A stretch of 64,000 nucleotides of DNA from Cetorhinus maximus (lineage: Eukaryota), in contig NC_135893.1 of NCBI RefSeq assembly GCF_964194155.1, forward strand, positions 24,180,001 through 24,244,000. The letters run 5' to 3'. Under the pieces are notes generated by a model. It did no database searches. It had not been told where the DNA came from and saw only the letters and a list, made by a program, of their open reading frames with translations. The translations under genes were made by a program, and so were the position numbers. How positions within the stretch are numbered: position 1 is the first letter of the stretch; each line of letters opens with the position of its first letter. Below, in pieces: positions 2,055 to 64,000 of the stretch.

Positions 2055-2216
2055 AAAATAAAAGCAAAATACTGCGGATGCTGAAGATCTGAAATAAAAA
2101 CAAGTGTCATATTGGGCACGAAGAAAAGTCATGTTGGACCCGAAACCGTAACTCGGTTTCTCTCTCCACAGATGCTGCCAGACCTGTTGAGTTTTTCCAT
2201 CATTTTTGTTTTTATT
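2055..2216. mobile_element. Penelope-terminus mini-element with two termini in inverted orientation and a degenerate hammerhead (about 2119-2153)
   Basis: Left part aaagcaaaatactgcggatgctg (minus-strand terminus); right part gacccgaaaccgtaact...ccacagatgctgccagacctgttgagtttttcc matches the copies at 15296-15399 and 21639-21778. Confidence 0.7.
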
Positions 2217-2370
2217 TGGGTCAGTTTATTTATCGTTTATTTGGATTGGGGTTAGCTGGTCTTAATAGTCAAACAGTATACCAACAATCAATGTCTAGAT
2301 CCAGAGGCTGACCACTGAGGAATCAACACCTTGAGGAGAGATGGAGGGAAAATTACATTTTAATCTTTAC

Positions 2371-3309: not shown

Positions 3310-6300
3310 GTGAGAAATAGGCTGGTAACTGGGAGAGGCGGCCTGGGAATGGGAGCAGGGAAGAGGGAAAGGAGAAAGGGCGGGAGCTGGGGTAGGGGAG
3401 AAAGCTTGGGGAATACCGGGTGAGTGAGGCTGTTGTCGGGAAGGGAGGCTGAGCTTTTCCGCTGCTCCGATGCTTACTTTACTTCGAGTCCGTTTGTTAT
3501 CGGGCGTTAGACTCGGAGCTGTTGTTGTATCCAGCTGTAAATGAACGGCGTGAAACTTTAACCTTTCTCTCGGGAAAAGGGCACGCATCCATCCAGTTTA
3601 GACTGATGAAATGAAAGTGCTCTGACCGACGATAGTTAAGATTATCAGTGAAATGAGTTTCAGGTAGTCAGCCTAGTAGTTTCCAATGTGAGGGCTTCAC
3701 AACACACACAAACTCCCTTATTTGATATTCAGAAGACTACAGGGGCTTTATTCTGTAATGAGTTTTTACACCTGGTTCGTGAATGCTTATTCTATGTAAC
3801 TAACCAGAAAATTCCGCAGAACCATATAAATATGGAAAAATGCAAATCCGATTAGTTTCTCCAGCAGTGTCTTCACACTTGGGAATAAGAAGATGATGTA
3901 CATTAGTCTGTATTCATAAATCCACAAATGTCGGAGCTGTCTATGAGTTTATTTTAAATTGAAACAGAAAATGCTGGAAATACTCGGATGGTCTGGCAGC
4001 ATCTTTGGAGAGAGAGAAACAATTGATGCCTGTGACCTTACTTTTAAATTGATGTCTACTTAAAGGGGATCCAGTAGAAAAAAGCCCAAGCAACAGCAGC
4101 AGGTGGACGATGACAGCGATGACCCTCAGACATACAGCAAATTGCCAAATCCAAATATTGTGAGTATGAAAGGGATGAGCATATTTCTTAAGTGCTTTTG
4201 GGAGGGTTTGTATTTTAGTAATTTGAATTGATGACTTAAAATCCTACAGATATATAGAAGAACTGTAATGGAAATGCTTCATGACAGCAATGCAATTGAT
4301 ATACTTATGGACTTTCAAAGACCTTTGACTACCACAAAAAACTTGTTAGCAAAATTAAAGCCCATGGGATTAAAGGAACAGTATTGGTGTGGATATGAAA
4401 TTTGTTAAGAGGCAGAGAGTAGTGGTGAAAGGCCGTGCAATTACCAAGACTGCCTATTTCCACCTATGTAAAATTGTCTGACTCTGCCGCCTCTGCCTCA
4501 GTTCATTTGCTGCTGAAGCCCTCACCAATATCTCTTTGTAACCTCTAGACTTGACTACTCCATCACTGTTAAGCCTGGTTTTCCCACTTTCTACCTGTAA
4601 ACTTGAAGACATCCAAAATTGCTGACTGTATCCTAACTCTCACTAAGTACGCTTCATCCACACCACCGTGTTCCTCCCCAGCCATATTCGCTGACCCTCA
4701 TTTGTCCCCCAATTTAGCAATGCCTCAATTTTAAAATTCTTTTTGTTTTTAAAATCCTTCCATGGTCTCTCCCCTCCCTATCTCTGTAAGTTCCTCCAGA
4801 CCTACAATGCTCAAATATCTGCACTCCTCCAATTCTGACCACTTGAGCATCCCCAATTTTAATCATTACAAGATTGGTGGCTATGCTTTCAGCTGCCTGA
4901 GCCCTAACCTCTGAAATTTCACCCCTTAAACCTCTCTGCCTCTCTACCTCTCTTTCCTGCTTTTCAAGTGCTCCTTAAAATCTACTTCTTTGACTAAACC
5001 TTTGGTCATCTGCCCTAAACTCCCTGTAATTCCTTGTCAACTTCTCTCTGATTACACCCCTCTGAAGCGACTTTGGACATTTTACTATATAAATACAAGG
5101 TGTTGTTGTAGTTGTAGTATGCCATGATGTTCCCCAAGGATTGGCATTGGATCCATTACTTTCAATGTTTGCAGATGACACAAAAGTCCAAGGGAAGGAT
5201 ACACCATCCGTGTTTAATTAGAAAGGTTAAAGATAGCATCAAACTTAAAGAAAAAGTATATAATTGTGCAAAGATAGGTGGAAGGCCAGAAGATTGGACA
5301 GAATATAAGGAGCAGCAAAGGGAAAAATTAGGGTATGAGAGGAAGATAGCCAGACATATAAAAACAGATAGTAAAGAGTTTCTATAAATATCTTAAAAAG
5401 AAACAAGTTTACATAGTGAGTGTTGGTCCTATAGAAAGTGAGTCTGGAGAATTGATAATGGAAAACAAGGAAATGTGAGATAGTTGATGCATTGGTTTTA
5501 ATTTTCGGAAACTTCCTAGATTCGGGGAGGGTCCCGTTAGATTGGAAGATAGTAAATGTAACTCTATTATTCAAAAACGGAGGGAGACTAAAAGTGGCAG
5601 ACTACAGGCCAGTTGGCTTAACATCTGTCATAGGAAAATGTTAGAAGCTATTATTAAAGAAGCTATAGCAGGCACAGGATAATCAGACAGAGTCAACATG
5701 GTTTTGCGAAAGGGAAATTATGTTTAACTCACTTGTTGGAGTTCTTTGAGGAAGTAACAAGTACTGTGGATAAAAGGGAACCATTGGATGTATTGTACTT
5801 AGATTTCCAGAAGGCATTTGATAAAGTGCCATATCAAAGGTTATTGTGGAAAATCAAAGCTCTTGGTATAGGGGGTAACATATTGGCATGCATAGAAGAT
5901 TGGCTGACTAACAAGAAGCAGATAGTAGGCATAAATGGGTCTTTTTCAGGTTGGCAAGACATAACGAGTGGTGTGCCACAGGGATCAGTGCTGGGACCTC
6001 ACCTGTTTACAATTTATATAATGACTTGGATGATGGGATGGTTGCAAAATTTGCTGATGACACAAAGATAGGTAGGAAAGTAAGTTGTGAAGAGGACATA
6101 AGGAGGCTACAAGGGTACATAGGTTAAGTGAATGGGCAAAGATCTGGCAAATGGAGTATAATGTGGGAAAATGTGAAATTGTCCACTTTGGCAGGAAGAA
6201 TAAAAGAAGCATATTATCTAAATGGTGAGAGGATGCAGAGGGATCTAGGTGTCTTAGTGCATGAATTGCAAAAGGCTGGTGTGCAGGTACAGCAAGTAAT

Positions 6301-12300: not shown

Positions 12301-15300
12301 ACATGGTTTTTGTTTTGCAGGCCTCCCCAACGAGTTGGCCTGGGGCCAGAAGAAAGCAGCATATTACAATACAGACTATGTCGACGAGCTTCCACGTAAG
12401 TGTAGTAATTTTCCATCTTGAACCAGCTTCAACAAGGAGGGAAAGATTTCCCCCATGCATTGCACGTAATAGAATCGTAAACCTGTTCTTTACAGACAAA
12501 TTTTTGATTTTTGTCGCATGTACTGACAGCTTCTCCCCACTTTAAGAATTAAAAATAAGAAATATATAATAGATCAGTTATCACCAGAAAACGAAAATGG
12601 GTTCATGTTTTGGTTGGCAACCCCCTCATCAGAACTGACAATACTGAAGTCGCTGCTGTTCTCTGTGAGCTGAGCTATACTGGACCGTACTCATTCCGAT
12701 GTCCCGAGGCTGGTTTCTGCTCTTTTCTTGGAATGTGCCACGAGGTGGTTTGTAAGAGCACTGGTGAGAATGGAGTCAGACTCTGTATTGGTAATGTGTG
12801 TTGTGGAAAATTTCAACAAATGGGGACACATTCCCATATTCAGTAGCACAATGGATTTAATGCAGGTGTGCTCAGTTCTTCACATTCCCCTTGCATGTTT
12901 TAGTGCTACATTCTCTACCCTCTCATTCAGCCCATTATCCTCCTCTTACTTCTGGAGCTGTTAAGTTATTGTTCAGTAGGAATCCTGTACTTTCACATTC
13001 CCAGGAAGTTTCCATGTTGGGGCTGTGCTTTTTAAAAGATAGATGCTTGGACACTGGAATCTCAGTGAGACACTAGGCTGGTATTTTGGAAAGATGGAAT
13101 CAAGTGTGACAAAGGAGTTTCATCTGCAGCTGTCTAGTGCTGTGCATCTTAAATAAACTGCAATGAGAATCTGCTTTAGCACACTAGGCTGCAGCCACAA
13201 GTGTCCACTGTCATTCCTTACATCTCTGGCGATACTACATGTTGGATCTGATTTGCAGATTTTCTCACATCCAGCCCTTTGGAAGCAATAGATGTTGATC
13301 TTGGGGATGTCTGGATCAGTGAATGTTTATTTTTGCTTGAAGTCCCTCTTGTCTCTGGGTGACATTCGAGCAATGCATGACTTGTTTGCATTCTCCACTA
13401 GTGATCCTGGGAGCTGTGTGAAAGTAGCTGATTCCAAATACCTTTTTTATCATAGTGGCACAGCTGAAATGTGGTGCATTATATTGAGCTTTGCATCAAG
13501 GTAACCTCTCCCTTTTTACATGAGAACCTCAGCTGGAAAATGATAATCTTGCATTTTCCATTTTGTGCTTCACCATCCTGATGAATATTTACTAGTTAAA
13601 TCAGGGAGGTGTAGGAATTTATCATGGAAACTAGGAGCAGGCCCTTTGAGCCTGCTCCGCCATTCATTATGATCATGGCTGATCATCCAACTCAATATAG
13701 ATATAAAAACAAAAAACTGCGGATGCTGGAAATCCAAAACAAAAACAGAAATACCTGGAAAAACTCAGCAGGTCTGGCAGCATCGGCGGATAAGAACAAA
13801 GTTGACATTTCGAGTCCTCATGACCCTTCAACAGAACTAAGTAGAAATGGGAAAGGGGTGAAATATAAGCTGGTTTAGTGGGGGAGCGGAGAGAAGTGGG
13901 GGGGGTTGTTGGGACAAGCAAGCAGTGATAGGAGGAGATAACCAAAAGATGTCACAGACAAAAGAACAAAGAGGTGTTGAAGGTGGTGATATTATCTAAA
14001 AGAATGTGCTAATTAAGATTGGAGAGCAGGACGAGCAAGGTGGCTCTAGTGAGGATGGGGTGAAATAAACCATGGGTGGAATACATTTAAAAATAATGGA
14101 AATAGGTGGGAAAAGAAAAATCTATATAAATTATTGGAAAAAACAAAAGGGAGGGGGAAGAAACGGAAAGGGGGTGGGGATGGAGGAGGGAGTTCAAGAT
14201 CTAAAGTTGTTGAACTCAATATTCAGTCCGGAAGGCTGTAAAGTGCCTACCATGTCCGGCCCATCTCCTGTGCATCCGCCCTCACGCCTTCTCCTCCCTC
14301 CCAGAAACATGATAGGGTCCCCCTTGTCCTCACTTACCACCCCACCAGCCTCCGCATTCAAAGGATCATCCTCCGCCATTTCCGCCAACTCCAGCATGAT
14401 GCCACCACCAAACACATCTTCCCTTCACCCCCCCGGCGGCATTCCTTAGGGATCGTTCCCTTTGTGACACCCTGGTCCACTCCTCCATCACCCCCTACTC
14501 CTCAACCTCCACCTACGGCACCTCCCCATGCAAATGCAAAATATGCAACACCTGCCCCTTCACTTCCTCTCTCCTCACCGTCCAAGGACCCAAGCACTCC
14601 TTTCAAGTGAAGCAGCATTTCACTTGCATTTCCCCCAACTTAGTCTACTGCATTCGTTGCTCCCATTGCGGTTTCCTCTACATTGGAGAGACCAAACGCA
14701 GACTGGGTGACCGCTTTGCAGAACACCTTCGGTCTGTCCGCAAGCATGACCCAGACCTCCCTGTCGCTTGCCATTTTAACACTCCACCCTGCTCTCTTGC
14801 CCACATGTCTGTCCTTGGCTTGCTGCATTGTTCCAGTGAAGCTCAACGCAAACTGGAGGAACAGCACCTCATCTTCCGACTATGCACTTTACAGCCTTCC
14901 GGACTGAATATTGAGTTCAACAACTTTAGATCTTGAACTCCCTCCTCCATCCCCACCCCCTTTCCATTTCTTCCCCCTCCCTTTTGTTTTTTCCAATAAT
15001 TTATATAGATTTTTCTTTTCCCACCTATTTCCATTATTTTTAAATGTATTCCACCCATGGTTTATTTCACCCCATCCCCACTAGAGCTACCTTGCTCGTC
15101 CTGCTCTCCAATCTTAATTAGCACATTCTTTTAGATAATATCATCACCTTCAACACCTCTTTGTTCTTTTATCTGTGTCATCTTTTGGTTAACTCCTCCT
15201 ATTACTGCTTGCTTGTCCCAACAACCCCCCCTACTTCTCTACCCCACCCCCAACTTTAAACCAGCTTATATTTCACCCCTTTCCCATTTCTACTTAGTTC

Positions 15301-18300
15301 TGTTGAAGGGTCATGAGGACTCGAAACATCAACTTTGTTCTTCTCCGCCGATGCTGCCAGACCTGCTGAGTTTTTCCAGGTATTTCTGTTTTTGCTTTGT
15401 CATCCAACTTAATAGCCTGCTCCTGCTTTCTCCCCATACCATGATTAGATTCTCAGTATCTGGTTGTTTACACACTTTCAGGTGGTAAGGGTCAGGTGGA
15501 GGCACTGGCAGAAGCTGAGGAGGAGGAACAAGAGGCTTTGAATATTCAGAAACGTTTGGCTGAGAATCTCACGGAGGATGACTTTGGACTTGACCTTATT
15601 CAGGTAACCACCAGCTCAAGTTGAGGTGTGAAAGCGGTATTGGCACCAGATTCAGTGCGTAAAGTCAAGTTGCATTGAAGGAAAATTTTTGACTTAATTG
15701 AAGTAATGTTTGACAAATAGGCATCTCTGGTATGTTTCTTTACTAAGGTTTTATTAATTAAAAAGTGTTGATCCAGACTTCCTGCTTTCTGTCTTCCATG
15801 CTACTGGATTTAGGGCACACCTCCATTAGGACTCGACTTTCATCTGCCTTTGCAATGCTTGCTCAATATCAACTATGTTCCATGTCTTTGCACTGCATTG
15901 ACCCACATGGGCAGATGTGATTTGTTCTGGTGGAACTGATTTGTAGAAAATAATGGGGAAGTGGAATGCTTCCCTGAATTAATCTCTGCAACTGCCTGTA
16001 CTACCTGCCAAAAAGTCAGTAGAGGGAGAGGGGTGGGGAAAGAAGATAGCTCAGACTGTTATAATGTGAGATGTGTCATTCTCATATTCACAGAATGCTT
16101 TGCAATCCTCGTTCATTGTATTTAAAAGCTGTTTATGGGTTTATGCTCGGTAGCATTGTCATCAGGGTCTAAGTGTAAGACTGGCTACTGGGTGACCTCA
16201 TGAGCCAATATTTGCTCCCGTGTCCCTTTTCAGACAGTCATTGGTTTGGGTATCGGAGCAGTCCGGAATAATTTTTCCTTTTCCACCACCCCCTCCACAA
16301 TCTCCTGAAAGAAGTTGCGTGGTGTCTGTTTGGTGCATCTTATGCCCTATCTTGGTTATAATATTGAGGTCCCCATCATACTCCTATTCAATGGATTATT
16401 GAGCTCTAGTAACCCTTGGTCGTCTTTTCACCACCAGTCACATATAATGTGGGTTTTCTCCCCAACAATGCTGCACATTACCGAGGAGTGTCCCCTTTAC
16501 AGACTAAACGGCAGACTAATCACCTTAAACTCAGCAAATGATGCTATTGCTTGGCTTTGGGGGTTTGCATTCATTATATAAATAAATAATTTAATCCTCC
16601 CATTATTAATTATATTTTTAAGCTCTCTCTGAAAGTAAGGGATGCATCACACTTTGTCAAAGTGGTCCTAGGCAGCAAATAGCCACCCAGGGAGATGGAT
16701 GTGCAGGAGATTGGCTCATGTGTTTTAAATCCACACTGTGTCTGAAGCACAACCTTTATGTAGCAGCTAGATCAGTTCAGTATTGTCTTGCACCCTTTTC
16801 ACGGTATTTGAGTGCTGTTCCTAAATTTGAAGATTTGAGAAATCTAGTCTTAATCCATGTAAAATAAATAATAGTATTACAGCGCTACTTGAATTTTGCA
16901 CTGTAAACTCGTACTACTAAGAGCCAGATTACAATTTCACAAACTTGCCTCTCTGAGAGCCTTAAATAACTATCCAAAAGGGATCTTCAACCCTCCATTT
17001 TCTCAGCTGCACTTGTCTGTAAATCCCAGCAAAGCTCTATACCTCTGACTAGAGGAGACACCATCTCTATTATTAGTGCTGGATTTGTGATGCGAGTCCC
17101 CAAAAGGAAGGGCATTCATTCCTTAAATCTGAAGTTTTTTTTCCCCCCTCTCCCATCAACTTAATCGCTTTGGAGACTATAATTCTGCTCAGTGCCTGTT
17201 TTGTATAGGCAATCGACCATGATTCCTTTTCCTGATTACTATCCATGTCACAAGTTTTGTATGACTATCAGGTGAGAAGATATCCTGCCAACACGCATAC
17301 ACAACAAAATGAGCAATTGGGTGAGATATCTTGAGAGCTGCCAGCACTCCTGAGACTGTATTTCAAAGGAGGCAGAGTTTTCTGGAAGGGCCGAGGGGAA
17401 GATTTGATAATTTCAGGAGTTTTTACCCAGAGGGTGGTGACAGTCTGGAATGCACTGCCTGGGAGGGTGGTGGAGGCAGGTTGCCTCACATCCTTTAAAA
17501 AGTACCAGGATGAGCACTTGGCATGTCATAACATTCAAGGCTATGGGCCAAGTGCTGGTAAATGGGATTAGGTAGGTAGGTCAGGTGTTTCTCACATGTC
17601 GGTGCAGACTCGATGGGCCGAAGGGCCTCTTCTGCACTGTGATTCAGATTCTGAGTGTTCTTGTTGCAGGCATTTGCCCAGGAACAGGAGGCTGAGAGAG
17701 AGCCAGAAAATGATCTGAAAATCAAAAAGGATTTGAAGAAAATGTCCCACAAAGAGCAGATGAAACTGCTGAAGAAAGAGTCACCAGAGCTTCTGGAACT
17801 CATTCAGGACTTCAAAGCGAAGGTTAGCAAAACTTTTAAAGCCACTCTGCGTTTATTTATCTGTTTTAGTGTTTTTAGTGTTTTTGAGTCTGAGTTCAGA
17901 AGTAGGGATGTCTTACTGCAGTGAGACCCCACCTGGAGTATTGCATGCAGTTTTGGTCTTACTACCTAAGAAAGGATATACTTGCCATAGAGGGAGTGCA
18001 GCGAAGGTTCACAAGGCTGATACTGGGATGGCAGGACAGTTGTATGAGGAGAGATTGGTTCAACTGTGCCTGTATTCAATGGAGTTTAGAAGAATGAGAG
18101 GGGATCTGATTGAAACGTATAAAATTCTAACAGGGCTAGGCAGATTGGATGCAGGGAGGATGTTTCCCCTGGTTGGGGAGTCTAGAACCAGGGGCCACAG
18201 TCTCAGGTAATGGGGCAGGCCATTTAGGACTGAGATGAGCAAAAATTTCTTCACTCAGAGGGTGGTCATCCTGTGGAATTCTCCACCACAGGAGGCCGGG

Positions 18301-21300: not shown

Positions 21301-24300
21301 TATAGCTACTGTACAAACATTAGTTTTTACCTGATACTGAAGGCAAAGCGGATCCCAGTGCACAATCACCCAGTAATTGAGAGACTGCTCACCTACAGAA
21401 ATGTGAGTATTACCTGGTTTAACTGCACCAGGGTCTAGTTTTCCTTGCATCTTTCCCTACCCATGGTTAAGACCACAGGGACAGCCTGGGCTCATGTTTC
21501 TGTTTGTCATTCAAAATCTAGTTATTATGCAGCGAAAAAGATTAGCATAAGAATGCTTCCCTCTGATTTGTTTTATTCTTTCCTACATCCTCTCCCCCCA
21601 CCCACCCAAACCAGCTTCAAACTCATTGAAGTACATTAGTTCTGTTGAAGAGTCATATGGACTCGAAACGTTAACTGTATTCCTCTCTGCAGATGCTGTC
21701 AGACCTGCTGAGTTTTTCCAGGTATTTTTATTTTTGTTTTTGTTTTGGATTTCCAGCATCCGCAGTTTTTTGCTTTTATCATTGAAGTACATTATTCACT
21801 GGGCAGTAAAACCCCAGTGGTTTGGGATAGGTGGTTCCCAGCTTTAAAAAAATGCCTGAGTTTAAACACAACTTGTGCAGATTTCTCCTCTTTTCTTGCA
21901 AGTGACGAATGTGTTTTCTTCTTGCAGCTGATCAATGACTTGGTTGGAGTAGGTGAGAAGCTGTCACCTGAAATCCAACAGCTTTTGAACCCGGTTAGTC
22001 AAGAGCATGGATCAGTTGTGGAAAAAGATCAACTCGCCTCCGAGGTGAAGAAAGCCCAGAATCAATTGAGCAAACAAGCTAAAGCTGAACAAAGAGCAGA
22101 AGAAAAGGTGAGATGTAGGAGGCTTTCCTCAGGTTAGTAGGGACAGAATCCAGATTTCATAGGGTGAACTGATGTTGCTAGTTGTGTCAAGTATAAAAAG
22201 TGTGGACACATGACAGTGACGCTGAGCTATGTCAAGAGTTGTGATCACTATGTTCATACAAGCTTAATATTGAAGCTGAAATGTGAGTTTTATGGTGAGC
22301 TTTGATGGACTGAATCTGTTCCTTTCAGTTCTTCTTATTATACTTGGGTTGGATTTAATAATTAGAAACTTTAATTCAAAACTTTTCCCAGCTCATGTTA
22401 ATTATCCTTCAAGCCTATTTTTCACTTTCTCTTTTGCCCCAGGGAGTGAGTTACGCAAAAGTGTACAGTGTACAGACTCCATCCATGTTGACACCAGACA
22501 GTGGGGCACAAAACAACCCTTAACTGCACTACATCAAAGCAAGTCTAGTTAGGAAAATAACATGAAAGTAGAAGAGATTTGACTTGGATTTTGTTCAATG
22601 CTTTGGGGAGTTAGATGTTAATACGGGGATCCCTTTCTCTAATCGATGCTATGAATGGGTATATTTGGCTCACTTAGTACGATTTTCTGCCTTTCCACAC
22701 GTTAAGTTTACAGGACTAATGTTTTGATGCAGGTCACTGATCAGGAAGCCTCTAGGGACTCCAAGTCTGATGCGGATGAAGAAGCAGCATTCCAATATTA
22801 TAAGGAAATGGAGGAGAGGCTGACACAGAAGAGAAAGCGAGCTCAACTGAACAGGTGCTGATTATTTACATATGAGTATGCATGTATATTATTGTGTTTT
22901 TAAAACATGACCTAGATTGTGTCCCCTCTAATCAGGAGAATGGCTACCTTGTGTGCTCTGCACAGCATGTAAATTGATAATTTATTTAGTGGGGAGAGGC
23001 ATCATGCATTAATTCATATATATCTTAAAAAATTAGCTGCCTTGGGGGTGGGAAGATATGACATGGTGGAGGAGCAATGTAGTAATGTGCATGGGCACTC
23101 AGAATGGCTTTGACAAGCTACCATGTGGGATATTGGAGAATAGAGGATATGGGTTTACAGAAAGGGTAACAACTTAAATTAGAACAGAGGGAATTGAGTG
23201 AAGGAACTAAAGGCAGTTTCTCAAGGTGATTAGAAGTCAGTAACAGTGCCTCACAGCATTCTGTTCTAGTGGGAGTGGCATCCAAATTTGCATACAATAC
23301 TAAAATGGGTGGTATAGCAAGTAATTCTCAGGACCAAAGGGACCTTGATGAGATGAGGGAATGGTCAAAAAAGTGGGAGATGGAATTCAATGTCAGCAGA
23401 TGTGAAGTGGTACATGTTTTTTAAAAAAACAAGTAGTGAGGGAAATTATGGCTGATGTGGGTGAGCAGAGTAATTTGAGGGTTCATGTTCATAAGACATT
23501 AAAAGCAGCATAACAAAAACAGAAAAACTCAGCAGATCTGGCAGCATCAGCGGCGAAGAAAAGAGTTGACGTTACGAGTCCTCATGACCCTTCAGCAGAA
23601 CTGAAGCAGCATCTCAAGTGGAAAAGGCCATAATGAAAGCGAATGTAATATTGGATTTTATTGTGAGAGTTACAAGTTATTTAGTTTGTGTTGTAATGGT
23701 AAATTTATATAAAGCCATAGTAAGATCTCAATTGGAACAGTGTGTGCAATTTTGGGCTGTGCACTATAGAAGGATGTAGAGATAGTAGAGAGGGTACAGT
23801 ACAGATTTGCTGGGATTCTGCCTGGTATGAGGAAATCCAAATATGAAAAGATTTTGAAAAATTGGATTGTTTTTGCAAGAACAGAGGAGATGTAAGTGGT
23901 GATTTGATGCAGTTGTTTCAAATTATGAAGGGGTGGGAGAGAGTAGATAGAAACTGGTTTATATGATCGATGTCTGCTGGTTCTAAATCAGGGATCTGCA
24001 CCCTGCAGCTCTGGAACCACATGTGGCTCCTTAACATCTCATTTGCAGCTCCTAACCTTTTCCAGTTGTATCGCATTAATATGAAAAAGCCTAAAAAGAG
24101 AAAATTAAGTCAAGAAAAGTAAGAGTTGTGTTTTTATTTTTTGGAATTAGGAGCTAATCATTACGCTGCACTTCATGGTTTCAAATGATTCTTTAACAAA
24201 AAACATTGTGCTCTAAATAAACCAGTTTGAGTGGTCATAGGGGTTATAGATATGGTCTTTGCTTCAAGGAACAGGTTTTCTGATTGTGACCATTATAGCT

Positions 24301-34900: not shown

Positions 34901-37142
34901 AAATTTCACACACCCACCCTCTTAGTAATACAGTCATCTTTTATTCATTCTCAATATGTGGGTGTCACTGACAAGGTCAGCATTTATTGCCCATCCTTAA
35001 TTACCCTTGACCACCACCTTGAATAGAACTAAGTGGCTTGCTAGCCTATTTCAGAAAGCTGTTAAGTAACATTTGAGAGTCTAGAGTCACAGATCAGCCA
35101 GACAGGGTAAGGGATAGCAGATTACAACCTGCCGGACTTAATATTGAGTTCAACAACTTCAGATCATGAACTCTCTCCTCCATCCCCACCCCCTTTCCGA
35201 TCCCCCTTTTTCTAATTATTTATATTTTTAAAATATATTTTCTTTTCCCGCCTATTTCCATTATTTTTAAATGTATTCCCATCCATTGTTTCATCTCCAC
35301 CTTTTAGCTTATTTCGATCCCTTCCCTCCACCCCACCCCCACTAGGGCTATCTGTCACTTGCTCGTCCTGCTTTCTATCCTTAATGTCACCATTCGCACA
35401 TTTCTTAGCTAATATCACCACCGTCAACACCCCTTTGTCCTTTTGTCTATGACATCTTTGGCAATCTCTTCTTTGCCTCCACCTATCACTGGCCCTCTAT
35501 CCAGCTCTACCTGTCCCACCCCCCTCAACCAGCTTATATTTCACCTCATTTCTAATTTTCCTCAGTTCTGATGAAGTTATACAGACTCGAAACATTAATT
35601 GTATTCCTCTCCGCAGATGCTGTCAGACCTGGAGTTTTTCCAGCTATTTTTATTTTTGTTTCAGATTTCCAGCATCCGCAGTATTTTGCTTTTATCTAAG
35701 GATAGCAGATTTCCTTCCCTAAAGGACATTAGTGAACCAGGTGGGTTTTTTATAACAATCTGGCAGTTTTACAATCACCATTATATAAAATCTGGAAATC
35801 AGCAATCAATTGACTTTAAATTCCCCAACCACCCTGGTCTCCAAATCATTACTACAGATGAACATATTAAATAGGAGCTACAAAAGGCCATTTAGCCTTT
35901 TGAGCCTGTTCTGTCATTCCATAAGATCAATACTGATCTTCTACCTTAACTCCACCTTCCTGCGCTATCCCCATATTTTTTAATTCCCTTAGTATCCAAA
36001 GGTCTATTGACCTGTCTTGAAACTACTCAACCAGTAAGCATCCACAGCTCAGGTACAGCGAGTAAGCATCTACAGCTCTGAGGGTACAGAAGTCCAAAGA
36101 TTCACAACCCTCTGATTGAAATTTATTTTCATCTCAGTCCTAAATGGCCGTTCCATTAATCGGAGACTGTGACCCCACGATCTAGATTTTACAGCCGGGA
36201 GAAACATTTTCTCAGCATCTACCCTGTAAAGCCCCCCTTAAGAATTTTATATAGTTAATTGAACTTGGCTATTCTGAAGCAAATGGAGCCATTTCACGGA
36301 CTGTTGAGAGAGGAAGTCAATTTGTTACAGTGTGGTCGTAACATAAATACGAGCACTTTAGGTCTGGAAAAGTGCAGAGACGATACAAATATAATTTTAT
36401 ATAATATATATAAAATTATATAATTTTATAATCAATAGACTAGGCAAACACCTAACTCAGAAAACTGAATGGATCATCTCTGCTGACCTAACACAACCCC
36501 AAAGCGAGCTTCTAAAGGGCATATATTTACAGATTAACCACTGAAGTTTCATAAGCACCAGGTGGATAACCACTATGCTCCATACCCAAGTATTTACTTA
36601 ATTTCCCTACCGATGGGGTTGAGCGCCTGAGCCGCCGCCCTCAGCAGGTACAGATAGTCGGATAAGGTGCTGAACTCCACGGGGAGGAGCAGGCCGGCCT
36701 CTCGCACGGCCACATAGCGCTGCAGCACCGGCACGATGTTGGGCAGTACTGCCTGGTCGGCTTCCACCCGCCAGCAGGTGGTTCCGACGTCCAGCACGGC
36801 CTTCAGCGCGTCCAGCATGTTGAGGCCGGAGTAACGCCGGGAGAAGGGGTAGAGGGAGCGCTGACGGTGCAGGAAAACCACGGCGTAGCCCAGGCCGAGG
36901 AAATACTCGGCAGACACGGCGCCGCGCCAGCCGCTGCTGAAATTGTCCAAGAAGCGGACGGTCCGCGACTCCAGCGGTACCTTGGTGCCGCCCGAGGTCA
37001 CCAGCACCACCCTGCGGCCTTGGGCGGCGTGCCGCACCGCGAACTCGGCCATAGCCTTGGCCGAGCTCTCCGCATTAGGCGGCGGGACGCAGTTCGAGAA
37101 GAAGCCGCTCCACTCCGACTCGCACTCCGCCACCGCCGCCAT
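31589..37142 (-). CDS. PPCS: Phosphopantothenoylcysteine synthetase, 3 exons, about 321 aa
   Basis: Exons 37142-36611, 32279-32176, 31918-31589 (966 nt, phases 1 and 0). Motifs [64 protein letters not shown]. Confidence 0.97.
32176..32279 (-). CDS. PPCS: PPCS exon 2
   Basis: cag|[35 protein letters not shown]|gtgagt. Confidence 0.97.
33060..34690. mobile_element. LINE cluster: L2 (-, about 33060-33360), CR1 (-, about 33465-34100), CR1 (+, about 34100-34690)
   Basis: [17 protein letters not shown] (minus strand) and [14 protein letters not shown] (plus strand) CR1 motifs. Confidence 0.85.
35124..35696 (+). mobile_element. Penelope 3' fragment (end of GIY-YIG ORF plus pLTR) with TSD
   Basis: Starts at [14 protein letters not shown]; homologous to 14890-15399; TSD ggatagcagatt at 35112-35123 and 35700-35711. 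Confidence 0.9.
35564..35600 (+). ncRNA. Hammerhead motif with canonical CUGAUGA core; helix II damaged
   Basis: AGTT-CTGATGA-agttatacagactc-GAAA-CATT-AATT. Confidence 0.6.
35870..36255 (-). mobile_element. CR1 LINE 3' fragment
   Basis: ccaaagattcacaaccctctga...ctcagtcctaaatggcc. Confidence 0.8.
36611..37142 (-). CDS. PPCS: PPCS exon 1 (CpG island)
   Basis: [11 protein letters not shown]...[10 protein letters not shown]|gtaggg. Confidence 0.95.
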
Positions 37143-37484
37143 TACAACTGGTCCTCCCCTCAATGAGTGTCCGGGTTCCCCCCGCCCCCTCCCCCCCGCG
37201 CGACCTGCACCAAGAACTCTCATCGCTCACGATAGGAGATGAATAACTTTTCCAAGTTGTCGCACAAAGGACACTTTTTCATATTTAAATATTTCTATTT
37301 TTCTCTTATTCATTCATTTTTAGTTTCCATTTGTGTTTTAATCTGTTTGTTGGGGGAAGCACTACGAAGTGCTCCTGGGTTCAGAAGTCAGAGGCCTTAG
37401 CAACGGGCCAGAGGTCCCTAGCAACCGCAACATATCAGAGGCGGAGGGGTTTTCAAGCAAGGACTGGCCTCCCCGGACACCGAG
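37143..37484. promoter_or_regulatory. Bidirectional PPCS/ZMYND12 promoter with a GC box and two RFX X-box-like sites
   Basis: ATGs are 342 bp apart head-to-head; ccccgcccc near 37180; ggccttagcaac at 37393-37404 and gtccctagcaac at 37414-37425. Confidence 0.8.
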
Positions 37485-40600: not shown

Positions 40601-43600
40601 TAAACAATTGCCAATTTTGGTAAGTGAATTAAACATTTACACTAATGGTATGACCTGTGGAATAGTAGGGCTAGATAAACTGCGTACCCCTCCTGGGATG
40701 GTCATAACACTACATAGCAAAAGTGGTTACCAGAAAGTAATATATTGTTGGGTGTGCATTGGGACATTTCTGAGGGATGGGATAAGACGCAATATAAAAC
40801 AAGTTCTTTCACTGGATCTACAATGCGTTTGTATCTATTAGGCTGTGTTTGCATGTGTATCTTGCCTTTTTAAGGAATATCTCTCAAGAATATGTGCCTG
40901 TAATTGTCTTCTGTCAGTGATGTAGCACACCAAGAGGCAGATTGGAATGGGATCCATGAGAAGATTTGCCAGCTCCTGATTCCAATACGGACAGCACCGA
41001 CATTCCTCAGCTCTGCAAAAGAGAGAAAACACAATGAGGAGCAGTTGATCCAGAGACAGGTAAACATTAAGCAGCTTTCATATTCATTCAGTTATTTTTT
41101 TCTTACTCTAATTTTCTTCTGAAGGTACTGACTCATGCTGGGGATATAGTTTCTTGGCAATTAGCAGCCCTTTGATGCTATTCCACATATTTGATCTTAA
41201 ACAGTCTGTGCTTGCAGGATAGTGACCATGAGGTCAGCACAGCCAAGTCAAATCCTGTTTAGACCCGAGATCCACATTTAGCAGATCTACAGCAGGAAGT
41301 GCAATCATTGTCATATAGGCGAACACAGGCCAATTTGCAAGGTCCCACAGTGACTATAGTGGATGGCCAGGTGATCTGTTTCTAATGGCGTTGGCCAGGA
41401 TATCTCCATGCTCTTCAAGAAGTGCCATAGATAATTTACGTACATATAAATAAGAGACAAGGTCTTGGTTTAATGTCTGATCCAAAAATTGTACCCACAA
41501 CAATGCAGCATTCCCTTAGTACTACACTGGAGAATCAGCTTAGTATATATGTTCAAGTTTTAGTCTTGTCCACAGTCTTGGAGTCATATTTGATCCCAGG
41601 ATGAGCTGCCGATTACATATCCACTCCATAACCAAGACCACCTACATCTACCTCTGTAATATTGCTCAACTGCACCCTGCCTTAGCTCATCCGCTGCTGA
41701 AACCCTCACCCATGTCTTTGTTGCTTCCAGACCTGACTATTCTAACCCCTCTCCTGGATGGCCTCCCATTTTCCACCCTCCATAAATTTGAGCTCATCCA
41801 AAACTGTTGTCTGTATCAAGATTGATTCACCTATCACCCTGTGCTTGCTGACTGACATTGGCTCCCAGTTTGGCAATGCCATAATTTTCTGATTCTCTTC
41901 CTTCATTTCAAATCCCTCCGTGGCCTCATTCCTCCTTACCTCTATAACCTCCTCCAGCCCTACAACCCTTTGAGATCTGTGTGCTTGCTCCTCCAATTCT
42001 GACCTTTTGCATGTCCCCAAATTTAATGACTCCACCATTGGTGGCCGTGCCTTCAGCTGCCATAGGCCTGAGCTCTAGAATTTTCACTCCCCCACCCCCA
42101 AAACACTCTTTCCTCCTTTAAAGCGCTCCTTAAAACCTATCTCTTAGACCAAGTTTTTGGTCATCTACTCATCCATCCTAACATCTCCTTATGTGGCTCA
42201 GTGTCAAATTTAGTTTGATAATACTCCCTGCATGTTTTACTATGTCAAAAGCAGTATATAAATGTAGTTTTGTTGCTTTTATTGCTTGAAAGTGAAAATT
42301 GCTGCAAATTGAGCCAAGCTCCAGACTTTCCCCTTAGTTTAGAGCTTTAACACCAGAGATCAGCCTCATGGCTTTTCTTTGCACTCCCTCCAAAACTCGA
42401 ATGCCTCCCTTTTATTCTGAGAACTGGCATTGGACACAGTACTTAAAATATGGTCCAACTAGAGCGCTATACAGTTTGCCCATGACTTCCTCTGACTTCT
42501 ATTCCACTGATTTGGATATATAGTTTCATAATGTATTAATTTTGCTGATTGTCACACTACAATAGGTATATTGAGTATCAAGTTAACTTAGACACTCTTT
42601 CAACTTCAACCTTAACTGTTTTAACAATATTCATTGAGTATGTTTGTCATCCAATTTTGGAACAATTAGCCATAATGTCCCTGCATTAGTTCACACTTAC
42701 ACATGAGAAATGGCATTTGGTGCACTAATGGACTGTTGCCATGCTGTACATATAGAAAATCCTTCAAGGAAGGTGGTAGTTAAATTGGAACAAACAAATA
42801 CAGTTTCTTTAAATGGCTTTCTTGTACCTGGTGTCTGTCAGTAATTATATTAACTGGTTGCTATGCTAAAATAATTCCATTGATCACAAAAATCTCAACA
42901 TTTAAGGTTGATGTTTCACCTTTGTCTAATGTTTTTGCTGTTTTACAGAAACACCTCATTAATCTGACACGGACAGTGGCCCAGAAACTTCTTTTTGAGG
43001 GTAAACATGAGGAAGCTGTTCCTGGAGCCTTGCAGTCTCTGCGTTTTGCAACTTCTGTTTACGGCAGCACCTCTGCTGAGCTAGTGCCATCTCAATTACT
43101 CTTGGCAGAGGCCAGTATTGGTAAGAATATTGTGTGTATTATTGGGGACTTGTCACTTGTGCAAAACTGTACAATTATTAAACATGTCAGCATGAAGTGT
43201 ATTATATCATCCACTTTGGACTTAAGAAAGATATATCAGATTACTTTCTAAATGGTGAGAAGTTGGGAACTGTGGAGGAGCAGAGAGATTTAGTAGTCCA
43301 AGAACAGAAATCACTAAAAGCTAGTGCATAGGTACAAAAATAATTTAAAAAGTTAAATGTCTTTACTTCAAGGGGAATGGAATACAAAGGAGTGGAAGCT
43401 ATGTTACAGTTTTATAAAGTTGCGGTTTGACCCCATTTAGAGTAGTGCAATTCTGGACACTGTCCTCAGGAAGGATACATTGGAGGGCAGTGCAGAGCAG
43501 ATTCACCAGAATGATACCTTGGCTAAAAGGTTAAATTATGATTACAGGGTGCAAAGACTTATACAGCTGAGTATAGAAGATTAACTTAGACTCAGAACTT

Positions 43601-52600: not shown

Positions 52601-55600
52601 CAAACATCTCATTTTCTTCCTGTTAATATTTCTGTCCTATATTTAGGCACTTTTTTGTGCTGCAGGCTGCCTGTGCTGTGGCTCAGTGGTAGACACTTAT
52701 TCCTGAGTAAGAAGGTTTGCACATTCAGAAGTGTGGAGATAGACTATTTTATCTAGATATAATAGGGCTTAGTGCATAATGCTGCCATACACATCAAAAA
52801 ATCCACTCAGTCCTTTTGACTGACACAGGCTGGATGATTTTTCGGCCAAACGATCTCAATTTGCATCACTATTGCAAACCACTTTGCTTGTCCACTCCCA
52901 TTTCAGCCCAACAGTCAGATGCAAAATATCATTGAGGATATTTCTATTTTATTTGCATGTAATAAGATAAAATGCAGTGATGAATGGATCCTGCATTATG
53001 AAAGCTGTCTCATTTTCCATTTGAAAGAAACTAAGTTCAGAAATTTACTCTTGACAGATTTACCATGCTACTCAGGTGTTTAGTGCATCTGATGTTCACA
53101 CAGCTGGTGGGTACTTTCACATGGCTAATGTGTTTTACAGAATGAAAAAGATGGACATAGCAGATTCACTGTACTCGGAGGTAGGTATCAGTATCACACA
53201 CCCCAACGTGATCAACACCTTCAGGACTAAACAACTGTCAATTTTCTTACCTCTGTGTTAGGTTTTGATGGATACAAGAGCACAGTTCCTTGGGAACACT
53301 TGTCTCTTGCTGTTACTTTATCAAACTTGTCATTTTTCCCATGAAACCTGGTATTTGCAATTATTCAACCATAGAGAGTTGTCGCAGCCCCACCTGATAT
53401 TCACATACATTCAGGTGGTTTCTGACAGTGATCTGGAGGAACAACTCTGGATGACTTCCTATGCCCCTGAGCCAGGGGGCACCAATGCCAATTGTAGCAC
53501 TTGATACTATACCCAGGTGAAATGTGCTAACAAGACAGAGCTATACCAGCATCAGGTAGCACAGCAATCCCACTAAGTGGCTGGGGCCCATTAATTTAAT
53601 TCTTGGGCTACATTCATTATTTCAATTTTACTGCAAATAAATTCTCCATTTCAAGAAAAAATGAAGCCATTTCTGATGGAGAGGAAGGTACTCGTAGTCC
53701 GCTTCTTTTTTGAGGTTGCAGGGTAGAGATTTGTGGGAGCTTTATTTATTCTACACCTAACCTGGGAGTACTTGATGTAAATGGGCAGAAAAAGCCCCTG
53801 TATCTATATCTGACCATACTAAATGTGTTTGGTGATTAGATCTGAAATGGGAAAGCAGCTACCCAGAATATAATGAGCGTATAAATTGCCAGAGAAGAGT
53901 GTATTTGATGATAAAATTTATGATCCAATCATAAATTATGTAAAGGGTCCATTTGGATTCTACACAATGGCAGTGTAAGGGAATGAATTTGGCAACATTG
54001 GGATTCAGTGCAGAGGTACTTAATGAGCATAAGAAATAGGAGGTGGCCATTTGGCCCTTTCAGCCTGCTCCACCATTCAGTGAGATCATGGTTTATCTTC
54101 TACCTCAACTCCACCTTCCATGACTAAGCCCATTACCCTCAATTGCCTAGTACCCAAAAATTTATCAAGCTCTGCGCTGGATATACTCTATGATTGAGAT
54201 CCACAGCTCTCTAGTGGAGCGAGTTTCAAAGATACACAACCCTTTGAGGGAGTCCCAAATGTCTGACCTCTTATTCTGAGATTGTGATCCCCACATTCTG
54301 GATTCCACTGGCAGGGGAAGCATTTTCTCAGTGTCTACCCTGTCAAGCCCCTTAAGAATTTTGTATGTATATGTTTCGGTTAAATTACCTCTCCATCTCC
54401 TAAACTCCAGGGAATATAGGCCTAGTCTACTTAATCTCTCCTCATAGAACAGTTCCCCTCATCCCAGGATATAGCCTTTGTTGCACTCTCTCTTGGGCAT
54501 GTATGTCATTTCCATAAGTAGGGAGACCAAAACTGTACACACTACTCCAGGTTTGGCCTCACCAATGCCCTGTATAATTGTAGTAAGACTTCTTTACTCT
54601 TACACTTCAATCCCTTGCTAACAAAAGCTAGCATACCATTTGCCTTCCTAATTACTTGCATGTTAACTTTTTATGGTTAGTGTACAAGGACACTGGAGCC
54701 CCTCTGAATTCAAGCATTTCCCAGTCTGTCACCATTCACAAAAAATTGTTTTTATTTTTTCTAGCAAAGTGGAAAATTCATACTTTGCCTCGTTGTATTT
54801 CATCTGGCATGTTCTTGCCCAATTACCCAACCTGTCTCCATACCTCTACAGCCTCCTGTTCACCACTTACTTACCCATCTAACTTTGTAACATCAGCAAA
54901 TTTGGATACAACAGAAAATGCTGGAAATCCTCAGTAGATCTGTTTCTCACTCCACAGATGCTGCCAGAGTTGACAATTCAGGTTGATGACTTCTCACCTG
55001 ACGAGAGGTCATTGGCCCGAAACATTAACTCTGTTTCTCTCTCCACAGATGCTGCCAGACCTGATGAGCATTTCCAATTTTTGGATACGTTATACTCAGT
55101 CCCCTCATCTAAGTCTACTGCCCCACTGGTTATAGTCTGCTAACCTGAAAATGTCCCGTTTATTCCTAGTTCCTGTTTTCTGTTCATTAAACAATCCTCA
55201 ATCCATGCTAATATTACCTCAATCCTAAGAGTCCTAATTTTGTGTAATAAGTTGCCATGCAAAGGTTGTCAAATGGTTTTTGAAAATCCAAATACACTGC
55301 ACCCTTTGCTCATCCTACTAGTTACATCCTCAAAAAACTCTTAATGGATTTGTCAAACACAGCTTCCCTTCCATACATCTGTGTTGACTCTGCTTAATCA
55401 TATTATGATTTTGTGTCCTGTTACCATGTCCCTAATAATATTCTAGTGTTTTGCCTACTATTGAATTTAGACTAACTGGCCTATAGTTCCTTATTGAGAA
55501 GCGTTTTTTATTCTAACAGTGAGCTGTGTACACTAATTAGACTCGTAAATTTATTAATTAGCGAACAAAAGTATTTTAAATAATTCAAGGTAGTTAAATA

Positions 55601-63356: not shown

Positions 63357-63748
63357 AAGGTGATGACGTAGCGGTATTGTCACTGAACTAGTAATCCAGA
63401 GACCCAGAGTAATGCTCTGGGGACCCGGGTTCAAATCCCACCACAGCAGATGGTGGAATTTGAATTAAATAAAAATCTAGAATCAAAAGTTTGATGATCA
63501 CCAGGAAACTATTGTCGATTGTTGTAAAAACCCACCTGGTTCACTAGTGCCTTTTAGGGAAGGAAATCTGCTGTCTAGCCTACACGTGACTCCAGACCCA
63601 CAGCAATGCAGTTGACTCTTAAAATGCCCTCTGAAATGGCCTAACAAGCCACTCAGTTGTAACAAACCGCTACAAAGTCACAAAAAAAATGAAACCGGAC
63701 AGACCACCTGGCATCAACCTAGGCACCGGAAACGACAATGGCAATCTC
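63357..63748 (+). mobile_element. tRNA-derived SINE (HE1-like)
   Basis: A-box-like gacgtagcggtattgtcac, B box gggttcaaatccc, body ggaaggaaatctgc...gactccagacccac. Confidence 0.82.
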
Positions 63749-64000
63749 AAAACAAAAACAGAATTACCTGGAAAAACTCAGCAGGTCTGGCAGCATCGGC
63801 GGAGAAGAGTCGACGTTTCGAGTCCTCATGGCCCTTCAGCAGAACTGAGTATAGTTAGGAGAGGGGTGAAATATAAGCTGGTTTAAGGTGGGGGGAGAGA
63901 AGTTGGGGGGGGGGGGGTTGTTGGGATAAGCAAGCAGTGATGGGAGCAGATAATCAAAAGATGTCATAGACAAAAGGATCAAAGAGGTGTTGAAGGCGGT
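63749..64000 (-). mobile_element. Penelope pLTR/3' end inserted in the SINE, running off the window
   Basis: Highly similar to 13738-13990. Confidence 0.9.
63808..63846 (-). ncRNA. Minimal type-I hammerhead ribozyme motif (A6C core variant, GUC triplet)
   Basis: Minus strand: AGTT-CTGCTGA-A-GGGCC-atgag-GACTC-GAAA-CGTC-GACT. Confidence 0.7.

Follow-up and report, generated by a model that had tools for sequence, protein, structure and literature searches.

Insertion ends of a Penelope-like element in Cetorhinus maximus cluster at the base of a hammerhead motif and probably mark the start of an uncleaved RNA template

The 64,000-nucleotide stretch of the genome of the shark Cetorhinus maximus analyzed here (contig NC_135893.1, positions 24,180,001 to 24,244,000, in the following called the window) contains short copies of the 3' end of a Penelope-like element (PLE). 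Three of them start at or close to the first helix of a hammerhead ribozyme motif in the pseudo-long terminal repeat (pLTR) of the element. The clustering of insertion ends at this helix exceeds chance, and a blind sample and whole-genome junction counts agree in this respect. The short copies, which we will name stubs from now on, are probably run-off copies of an uncleaved linear RNA starting at position +1, an RNA polymerase II (Pol II) start predicted from the sequence. The boundary would be shared because the RNA likely starts at +1 and the reverse transcriptase (RT) runs off the uncut RNA end. Positions are numbered from the A of AG(T/C)TCTG, with which helix I begins, as +1; this puts core C3 at +5 and the GUH cut after +35. 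Features of the window are collected in Table 1.

Insertion ends at helix I

The initial annotation of the window stated that two insertions with target-site duplications (TSDs) begin within 2 nt of helix I and that an inverted element has its junction at the CTGA core. Both statements proved correct. Stub 1 starts at +2 and stub 2 at -1, each with an exact TSD (16 nt at 21623/21779 and 9 nt, respectively), and the right arm of the head-to-head stub opens with CTGACGA at 54998 (+5). The junction of stub 1 is ambiguous by 3 nt, the TSD end TTA being identical to element positions -2..+1. Stub 2 carries an internal deletion of 9 nt. The start of the head-to-head stub is defined by its inversion junction and not by upstream homology, and its subfamily is without a long reference copy in the sample described below.

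All three copies (21639, 23512 and 54910) hold sequence on both sides of the cut site (+35/36), which is predicted at 21672/21673 within stub 1 and at 23568/23567 within stub 2. The conclusion drawn earlier from this arrangement, that a cleaved linear RNA cannot be its template, still stands, and the use of uncleaved template is already known in vitro for PAc, the Poseidon element of Anolis carolinensis (PMC11167929). Spanning of the cut site, however, is shared by all copies that extend to +35 and does not set these three apart.

The minimal type I hammerhead of stub 1 was read from the sequence, and its helices I and II appear in the computed fold. An intact CUGANGA/GAAA/UH core is absent from 21639, which has A6U, and from 23603, which has the core CUGCUGA (A6C) together with A13U. 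The arm at 54998 retains CUGACGA and GAAA, and its helix III has decayed. An Rfam search returned no hammerhead at the gathering score, and the computed hammerhead fold is weak (z -0.6 to -1.5). Across whole young subfamilies core position A6 is U or C (CUGUUGA, CUGCUGA, CUGCCGA; for example 15300-15306 and 23592-23598); it is kept as A in one older subfamily.

The blind sample consisted of 138 stretches of 10 kb at round coordinates (140 requested, 1.38 Mb in total), which were searched with a profile of the element part behind the cut site. This search gave 130 hits including the window and none in reversed DNA. The 119 hits of the sample were reduced to 116 by dropping three at stretch edges and to 75 with a close long reference by dropping the 41 with <88% identity or <40 aligned bases. 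After collapsing of pairs 63 events reach +40; 24 of them pass -55 and 39 end between -55 and +40. Nearly half of the latter (19/39) end in -5..+5, which is 10 of 95 nt (p=2e-9). The complex insertion L127 was counted twice, and merging it gives 18/38. Without the filter for a close reference 32 of the 116 hits end in -5..+5. Only one event ends in -15..-6, and the blind sample showed no peak at the cut site (3/63 events at +31..+40). The breakpoint hazard was 0.038/nt at -5..+5 versus 0-0.010/nt in the nine other bins. Single copies (11/28, p=7e-5) and pairs (8/11) both contribute to the peak. As a control, 600 simulated uniform cuts were recovered evenly, and none of 26 uncut long copies was called at the peak. 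The central copies of L001-L030, which were picked by a query reaching to -16, served as references and entered the pair table but not these histograms. Because private query variants had enriched the central copies of L169-L198 and L210-L239 for junctions at +43..+48, the count stops at +40. A single DNA search within the genome itself gave no hits.

For the young subfamilies junctions were also counted in the whole genome, with two non-element bases required before a position. Raw counts were 546 at +1, 79 at -3, 133 at -9, 466 at +5 and 288 at +12; after correction for capture they amounted to about 1,517, 152, 257, 899 and 513, respectively, with 10,644 copies intact from -5 as reference. 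The counts at -9 and +12 are upper bounds which include one-base deletion variants, the +12 anchor is shorter and covers more subfamilies, and the +5 class largely represents the fold-back partner of the +1 arm. Forty +1 loci were fetched from the top of the listings, 20 in which C or G precedes G and 20 in which A or C precedes A. All were true junctions, and a common upstream exon was found in none of the 40. Inversions make up 25 of them, with partner arms joining from +1 to about +100; a single partner passes +1 (to -8). In L304 body sequence stands before the +1 stub, which would fit a template jump. Thus, the breakpoints along the consensus do peak at helix I, and the even spread that would have spoken against a shared boundary is excluded by the histogram as well as by the whole-genome counts.

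Head-to-head insertions usually have TSDs of 12-16 nt; among them are 13698-15399 and 2058-2217 in the window. The 54 pairs comprise 28 long-long and 2 long-short pairs and 24 which lie wholly at or downstream of -5. A peak arm occurs in 11 of the 54, never with a long partner, and in the 36 pairs with a peak arm overall one partner extends past -5. Conversely, where one arm extends beyond -100 (21 pairs), the partner passes +1 in 20. The boundary therefore binds the template and not the single arm; the evidence for this is strong, though not free of bias because arm lengths correlate in general. There are two classes of 3' ends, at about +101 and +135, and of the 45 pairs that could be classified 43 combine one short with one long tail (p=3e-11), which suggests that each target strand is primed at one site. 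In the long-long inversions of L169, L171, L187, L017 and L057 the arms join at -24..-39, on the self-complementary TATA-like box described below. L051 and L278 share one junction, with arms at +2 and +1 split by CG, as if each cDNA had gained a C.

Run-off at a start site and its alternatives

Two features of PAc are relevant here (Frangieh et al. 2024, PMC11167929): its RT primes internally at two sites and extends both strands on unprocessed RNA, and a shorter product results when the RNA is truncated at its 5' end. By analogy, both nicked target strands would be primed in the shark family, at two internal sites (about +101 and +135). Priming merely 100-135 nt from the RNA end would let the RT reach that end. 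The pile-up of 5' junctions at +1..+5, the near-absence of junctions at -6..-15 and the limit on both arms point to templates devoid of sequence upstream of +1. If +1 is the transcription start, as a TATA-like box at -31..-28 and an initiator (Inr)-like motif at +1 suggest, the hammerhead would be the first part to be transcribed. The cDNA ends would then be linked to the target, or to one another, through 1-4 nt of microhomology or through short fillers, with trimming of 0-4 nt, and the outcome would be a promoterless dead-end stub. Long copies would derive from templates with upstream sequence, for which the 3' pLTR, RNA from read-through, a jump between templates and a circle are conceivable sources.

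TATA boxes and Inr elements have a defined consensus and spacing. Both motifs are present in this spacing, and 45 of 50 long copies have a TATA-like match at -31..-28, which is canonical in the older subfamily and the weak TATATTT in the younger. The box about 30 nt upstream, which the initial annotation did not contain, points to a transcription start. Transcription by RNA polymerase III is unlikely because of T runs near +77. A putative TATA box with Inr has been noted in rotifer pLTRs (PMC3846280). Junctions of the CG class are mostly microhomology with the partner arm, and one clean single extra G was found (L275). For RNA that includes upstream sequence, as in 15260-15399 of the window, folding predicts pairing between a CCCCUU tract (about -22..-16) and the 5' strand of helix II, which would undo the hammerhead (z +1.1, weak). 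The ribozyme may fold only in RNA starting at +1. Contigs make up each of the 24 runs listed. A rise of contig depth at +1 in RNA runs (about 4- to 57-fold) was not counted as evidence, a 3.7-fold rise being found also in a run of unknown kind.

Several observations speak against a run-off at a transcription start. There is no cap signature among the +1 junctions, a G preceding +1 in 210 of 546 (0.385) versus a background of 0.386. Most TATA-like matches (39/48) are the weak TATATTT and only 6 are TATAAAT, and the 50 long copies are kin, which reduces them to about three independent subfamily observations. The promoter of D. virilis Penelope is described as TATA-less and internal, with an intron end that maps to helix I; its mapped start site lies about 120 nt upstream of helix I (46 nt plus the 75-nt intron). 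The first base of stub 2 is at -1 and hence one position upstream of the proposed start. The two arms of a pair tend to correlate in length in any case, so that the absence of mixed pairs is inflated. The result was weaker in a second set of 30 arms (27 events), which had been chosen with a downstream 38-mer and were mostly long: 3/27 events lie at the peak, and within -50..+40 it is 3/8 (+1..+3, p=0.05), with no events at -50..-1. Finally, an mRNA starting at +1 should often make body-spanning copies stop there, and these mostly pass it: of ten such copies reaching +6, nine continue beyond -10, the remaining one ends at about -6, and there is no stop at +1..+5 (the tandem array L324-L327 stands outside this count). 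Likewise, 12 internally deleted mini-units have their unit junctions at -5..-415 and never at +1.

The alternative which survives best, although we regard it as unlikely, is a template end at +1 made by processing, either through a 5'-3' exonuclease that stalls at the helix I base or at a bound protein, or through a nuclease cut. Processing fits all genomic results equally well, including the sharp edge exactly at helix I, the limit on both arms and the lack of a cap G. However, it leaves unexplained why the TATA-like box is held at -31..-28 across subfamilies that differ by indels, and helix I has only 4-5 bp, in a weak fold (z -0.6 to -1.5).

Somewhat less probable is a pause of the RT at +1, with loss of a longer template, owing to the ribozyme fold or to a protein footprint. 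A leaky stop would agree with the many copies, among them most body-spanning ones, that pass +1. Yet the RT would meet the 3' strands of helices I and II first, which leaves nothing to pair by +1, and no peak was found at +21..+40. A leaky stop should also often pair a +1 arm with a long arm, which was seen in 0/11 and 1/25 cases. Of the two explanations offered initially for the boundary, a defined RNA end is thus retained as the most likely one, and an RT stop tied to the ribozyme fold is disfavored.

Lower still we place a repair hot spot, in which mini-palindromes at +1 (CAG-TT-CTG, ACT-C-AGT, AGCT) favor fold-back or microhomology joining; self-priming was proposed in PMC3846280. It would agree with the break of 8/11 sampled pairs at this site, with several junctions that are hairpins with loops of 1-2 nt, and with the fold-back AA in over half of the first 100 listed +5 junctions. 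Against it, the non-inverted copies peak too (11/28), some with the TSD directly adjacent (21639, 23603, L267, L275, L303). Furthermore, no comparable peak is seen at helix II or at +30..+38, where there are perfect 6-nt palindromes, and the partner arms of the 40 fetched loci join anywhere in +1..+100.

It is very improbable that YAG at -1..+2 serves as a 3' splice site and that the stubs come from spliced RNA, as in the D. virilis intron (PMC4209133). All subfamilies do have a pyrimidine tract, often with CTAAC, and then YAG before helix I. Splicing would, however, add a common exon 1, of which the 40 loci show nothing and for which there is no room where a TSD abuts the stub. No canonical splice joint occurred among the joints listed (15/55 and 15/42). 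An intron from a GT at about +86 was also considered and rejected, this GT being absent in one subfamily.

Even smaller is the chance of a re-ligated circular RNA, as in retrozymes, being the template of the stubs. Such circles have been proposed for PLEs (PMC4209133), they would explain that stubs span the cut site, and a tandem of 267-nt units exists (L324-L327). But closure at +35/36 would leave a circle without an end at +1, the stubs occur singly and show no permutation, and hammerhead-dead PAc RNA was copied as well as wild type (PMC11167929). Among the templates named in the initial annotation uncleaved RNA is therefore kept for the stubs, for which a re-ligated circle is neither supported nor required; a jump or a circle is left for other copies.

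The least probable explanation is a SINE-like family from one or few short masters starting at +1: the stub label is somewhat clustered on the tree of 79 rows (18 changes versus 25.6 when shuffled, 1/500 as low), but stubs stand among long copies in every subfamily, at least 9 label changes are forced by supported branches, a single origin occurs in 0% of bootstrap trees with stubs failing to form a clade, and 3' ends and junction fillers vary copy by copy.

Parent element, longer copies and other features of the window

The three stubs match the 3' end of the insertion 13698-15399, and the full unit measures 3,290 nt (3.29 kb). Judged by its sequence the parent is a Neptune-like endonuclease-containing (EN+) Penelope element, which is a known element class. 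RT and GIY-YIG domains occur in one unit, both with weak scores: the RVT_1 match in L204 (E=2e-5) reached 24.8 bits, under the cut-off of 29.6, and the GIY-YIG match in the long arm of the window (14400-14933, E=1.5e-4) scored 22.4 versus a cut-off of 22.6. The Neptune clade is marked by a CX2-5CxxC Zn-finger within the RT-endonuclease linker (PMC8557442), and C-X3-4-C-X2-C was found in 7 of 10 loci scanned. The long open reading frame (ORF) has a likely ATG near +180. Tandem and inverted arrangements are represented by L202, L204 and L063 (pLTR-body-pLTR) and by the 54 head-to-head pairs. The two classes of 3' ends (about +100-105 and +135-140) give the expected tail of 30-40 nt, and a minimal hammerhead in the pLTR was read from sequence and alignments. 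With 119 hits in 1.38 Mb of a 4.0-Gb genome the family size extrapolates to the order of 10^5 copies. Most copies are unlike the stubs: four arms in the window are long, as are the sampled events that pass -55.

Table 1. Coordinates, strand and basis of the features in the window (strand "." where none is assigned).
Position	Strand	Feature	Basis or remark
2058..2217	.	Older head-to-head stub, right arm start about +5..+7	By eye
3963..4041	-	Older short copy, 11-nt TSD, start inside core (about +10)	By eye
13698..14249	-	Long inverted arm of reference insertion, start about -485, long tail	
14250..15399	+	Long arm of reference insertion, start about -1100, short tail: ORF end, Zn-finger linker, GIY-YIG (14400-14936), 3' untranslated region, hammerhead	
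15267..15273	+	TATA-like box TATATTT at -29	Position kept in 45/50 long copies
15294..15300	+	Inr-like TTAGTTC; its A (15296) is +1, predicted transcription start	Sequence and breakpoint peak
21590..21617	+	28-nt match to pLTR -58..-29, adjoins TSD of stub 1 on the left	Score 42
21623..21638	+	Left TSD of stub 1, 16 nt	Final 3 nt (TTA) equal element -2..+1
21638..21676	+	Minimal type I hammerhead of stub 1: helix I AGUU/AACU, core CUGUUGA (A6U)	
21639..21778	+	Stub 1, pLTR end, +2 to long-tail site (about +137)	TSD and alignment
21779..21794	+	Right TSD of stub 1	
23503..23511	-	9-nt TSD, 3' end of stub 2	
23512..23603	-	Stub 2, -1 to short-tail site (about +101)	
23604..23612	-	9-nt TSD, 5' end of stub 2	
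35124..35699	+	Long copy, start about -494, 12-nt TSD	
54910..54997	-	Head-to-head stub, left arm, start about +7, internal inversion 54939-54968	
54998..55079	+	Head-to-head stub, right arm, start at core C3 (+5)	9-nt TSD at 54901 and 55080
63748..64000	-	Long copy running past window end	

A junction between tail and body occurs in 994 copies, of which 30 loci were examined. Read-through, a jump or a circle is required wherever a copy exceeds one unit. A circle or a template jump may apply to these and to tandem copies; for the stubs a circle is very improbable. The tandem L324-L327 (G000:C1:45239201-45240721) is bounded by a short TSD and contains about 4.3 units of 267 nt (-11..+236), which are >99% alike. 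Each full unit carries a hammerhead, so that the array is retrozyme-like. At least two units with a hammerhead each, the arrangement of retrozymes, were found only in this array and in none of the three window copies. In the mini-units L310, L312, L314, L315, L316, L318, L321, L323, L332, L334 and L337 the body is kept to at least +198, and L312 and L321 have an identical deletion junction in both arms. The kept region behind the tail may mark protein binding.

A more speculative scheme, which we consider possible but doubtful, involves two RNA forms. A capped uncleaved transcript from +1 would yield only promoterless stubs (tens of thousands per genome), and copies that regain the upstream promoter would come from RNA carrying the 3' untranslated region ahead of the priming sites, either a unit-length circle which the two hammerheads close or the product of strand transfer at +1. 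A protein dimer would prime both strands with one tail site each, and the ribozyme would act as a self-decapping, circularizing switch. If true, this switch would explain how pLTRs are regenerated.

The 28-nt match next to stub 1 has a score of 42, which none of 150 random 222-mers reached (best 41), and its right edge lies at the TATA-like box. The ORFs at 36594-37226 (-), 42784-43251 (+) and 21929-22137 (+) resemble PPCS, ZMYND12 and an exon of a coiled-coil gene, and the stubs probably lie in introns. Decayed gag/pol-like fragments of an LTR element were noticed by eye at 48315-51294 (-).

Comparison with known systems

PAc resembles the shark family in its two internal initiation sites bounding a tail of 30-40 nt, in the cutting and extension of both target strands, in the unprocessed RNA substrate and in the hammerhead upstream of the initiation sites (PMC11167929). 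The available parts of that report describe no in vivo 5' boundary, start site or rule of one site per arm, and the ORF of PAc starts at stem II instead of at an ATG near +180. EN+ PLEs including Neptune (Craig et al. 2021, PMC8557442; Arkhipova et al. 2013, PMC3846280) share 5'-truncated, partial-tandem and inverted head-to-head copies, the tail at one end only, the CX2-5CxxC linker, a putative TATA box with Inr and palindromes at inverted junctions. Truncation is frequent there, yet not described as peaked at a start site. Moreover, inversions were attributed to self-priming on an antisense template (PMC3846280), whereas the arms observed here carry different initiation sites.

The minimal hammerheads of metazoan PLEs (Cervera and de la Pena 2014, PMC4209133) have the same short helix I, longer helix II and palindromic minimal helix III, and thousands of them are solo motifs. 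In contrast to these, young shark subfamilies carry A6U or A6C, and the motif would begin with the first nucleotide of the RNA, whereas that of D. virilis lies where an intron ends. Non-LTR retrozymes (Li et al. 2026, bioRxiv 10.64898/2026.07.22.740005) are likewise non-coding pLTR derivatives with type I hammerheads and many monomers. They are defined by tandem units, however, whereas all three window copies stand singly or head to head, with a boundary at +1; L324-L327 is the only fit. Uncleaved templates, the circle proposal, one-end tails, inverted copies and a putative TATA box with Inr are covered by the available parts of PMC11167929, PMC4209133, bioRxiv 2026.07.22.740005, PMC8557442, PMC2377424 and PMC3846280. 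In the accessible text of the open-access PLE literature we found no report of a breakpoint peak at a start site or of one priming site per arm. What is new is the mapped boundary and the arm rule; the element and its use of uncleaved RNA were already known.

These results concern the start of PLE RNA, the role of the hammerhead and the rebuilding of the pLTR promoter in each round. This family appears to record the process at single-base resolution, with a template end at +1, two sites with one per arm, and more-than-unit copies that run past +1, and it provides exact coordinates for cap mapping and circle tests. The run-off of uncleaved RNA at +1 would also account for many solo minimal hammerheads in animal genomes that begin at helix I. 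A related process is the synthesis of minus-strand strong-stop DNA in LTR retroelements, where priming takes place near the RNA 5' end and the RT runs off at the start site. In the shark family, in contrast, the primer would be the target DNA, no tRNA would take part, and the run-off product would be integrated as a stub.

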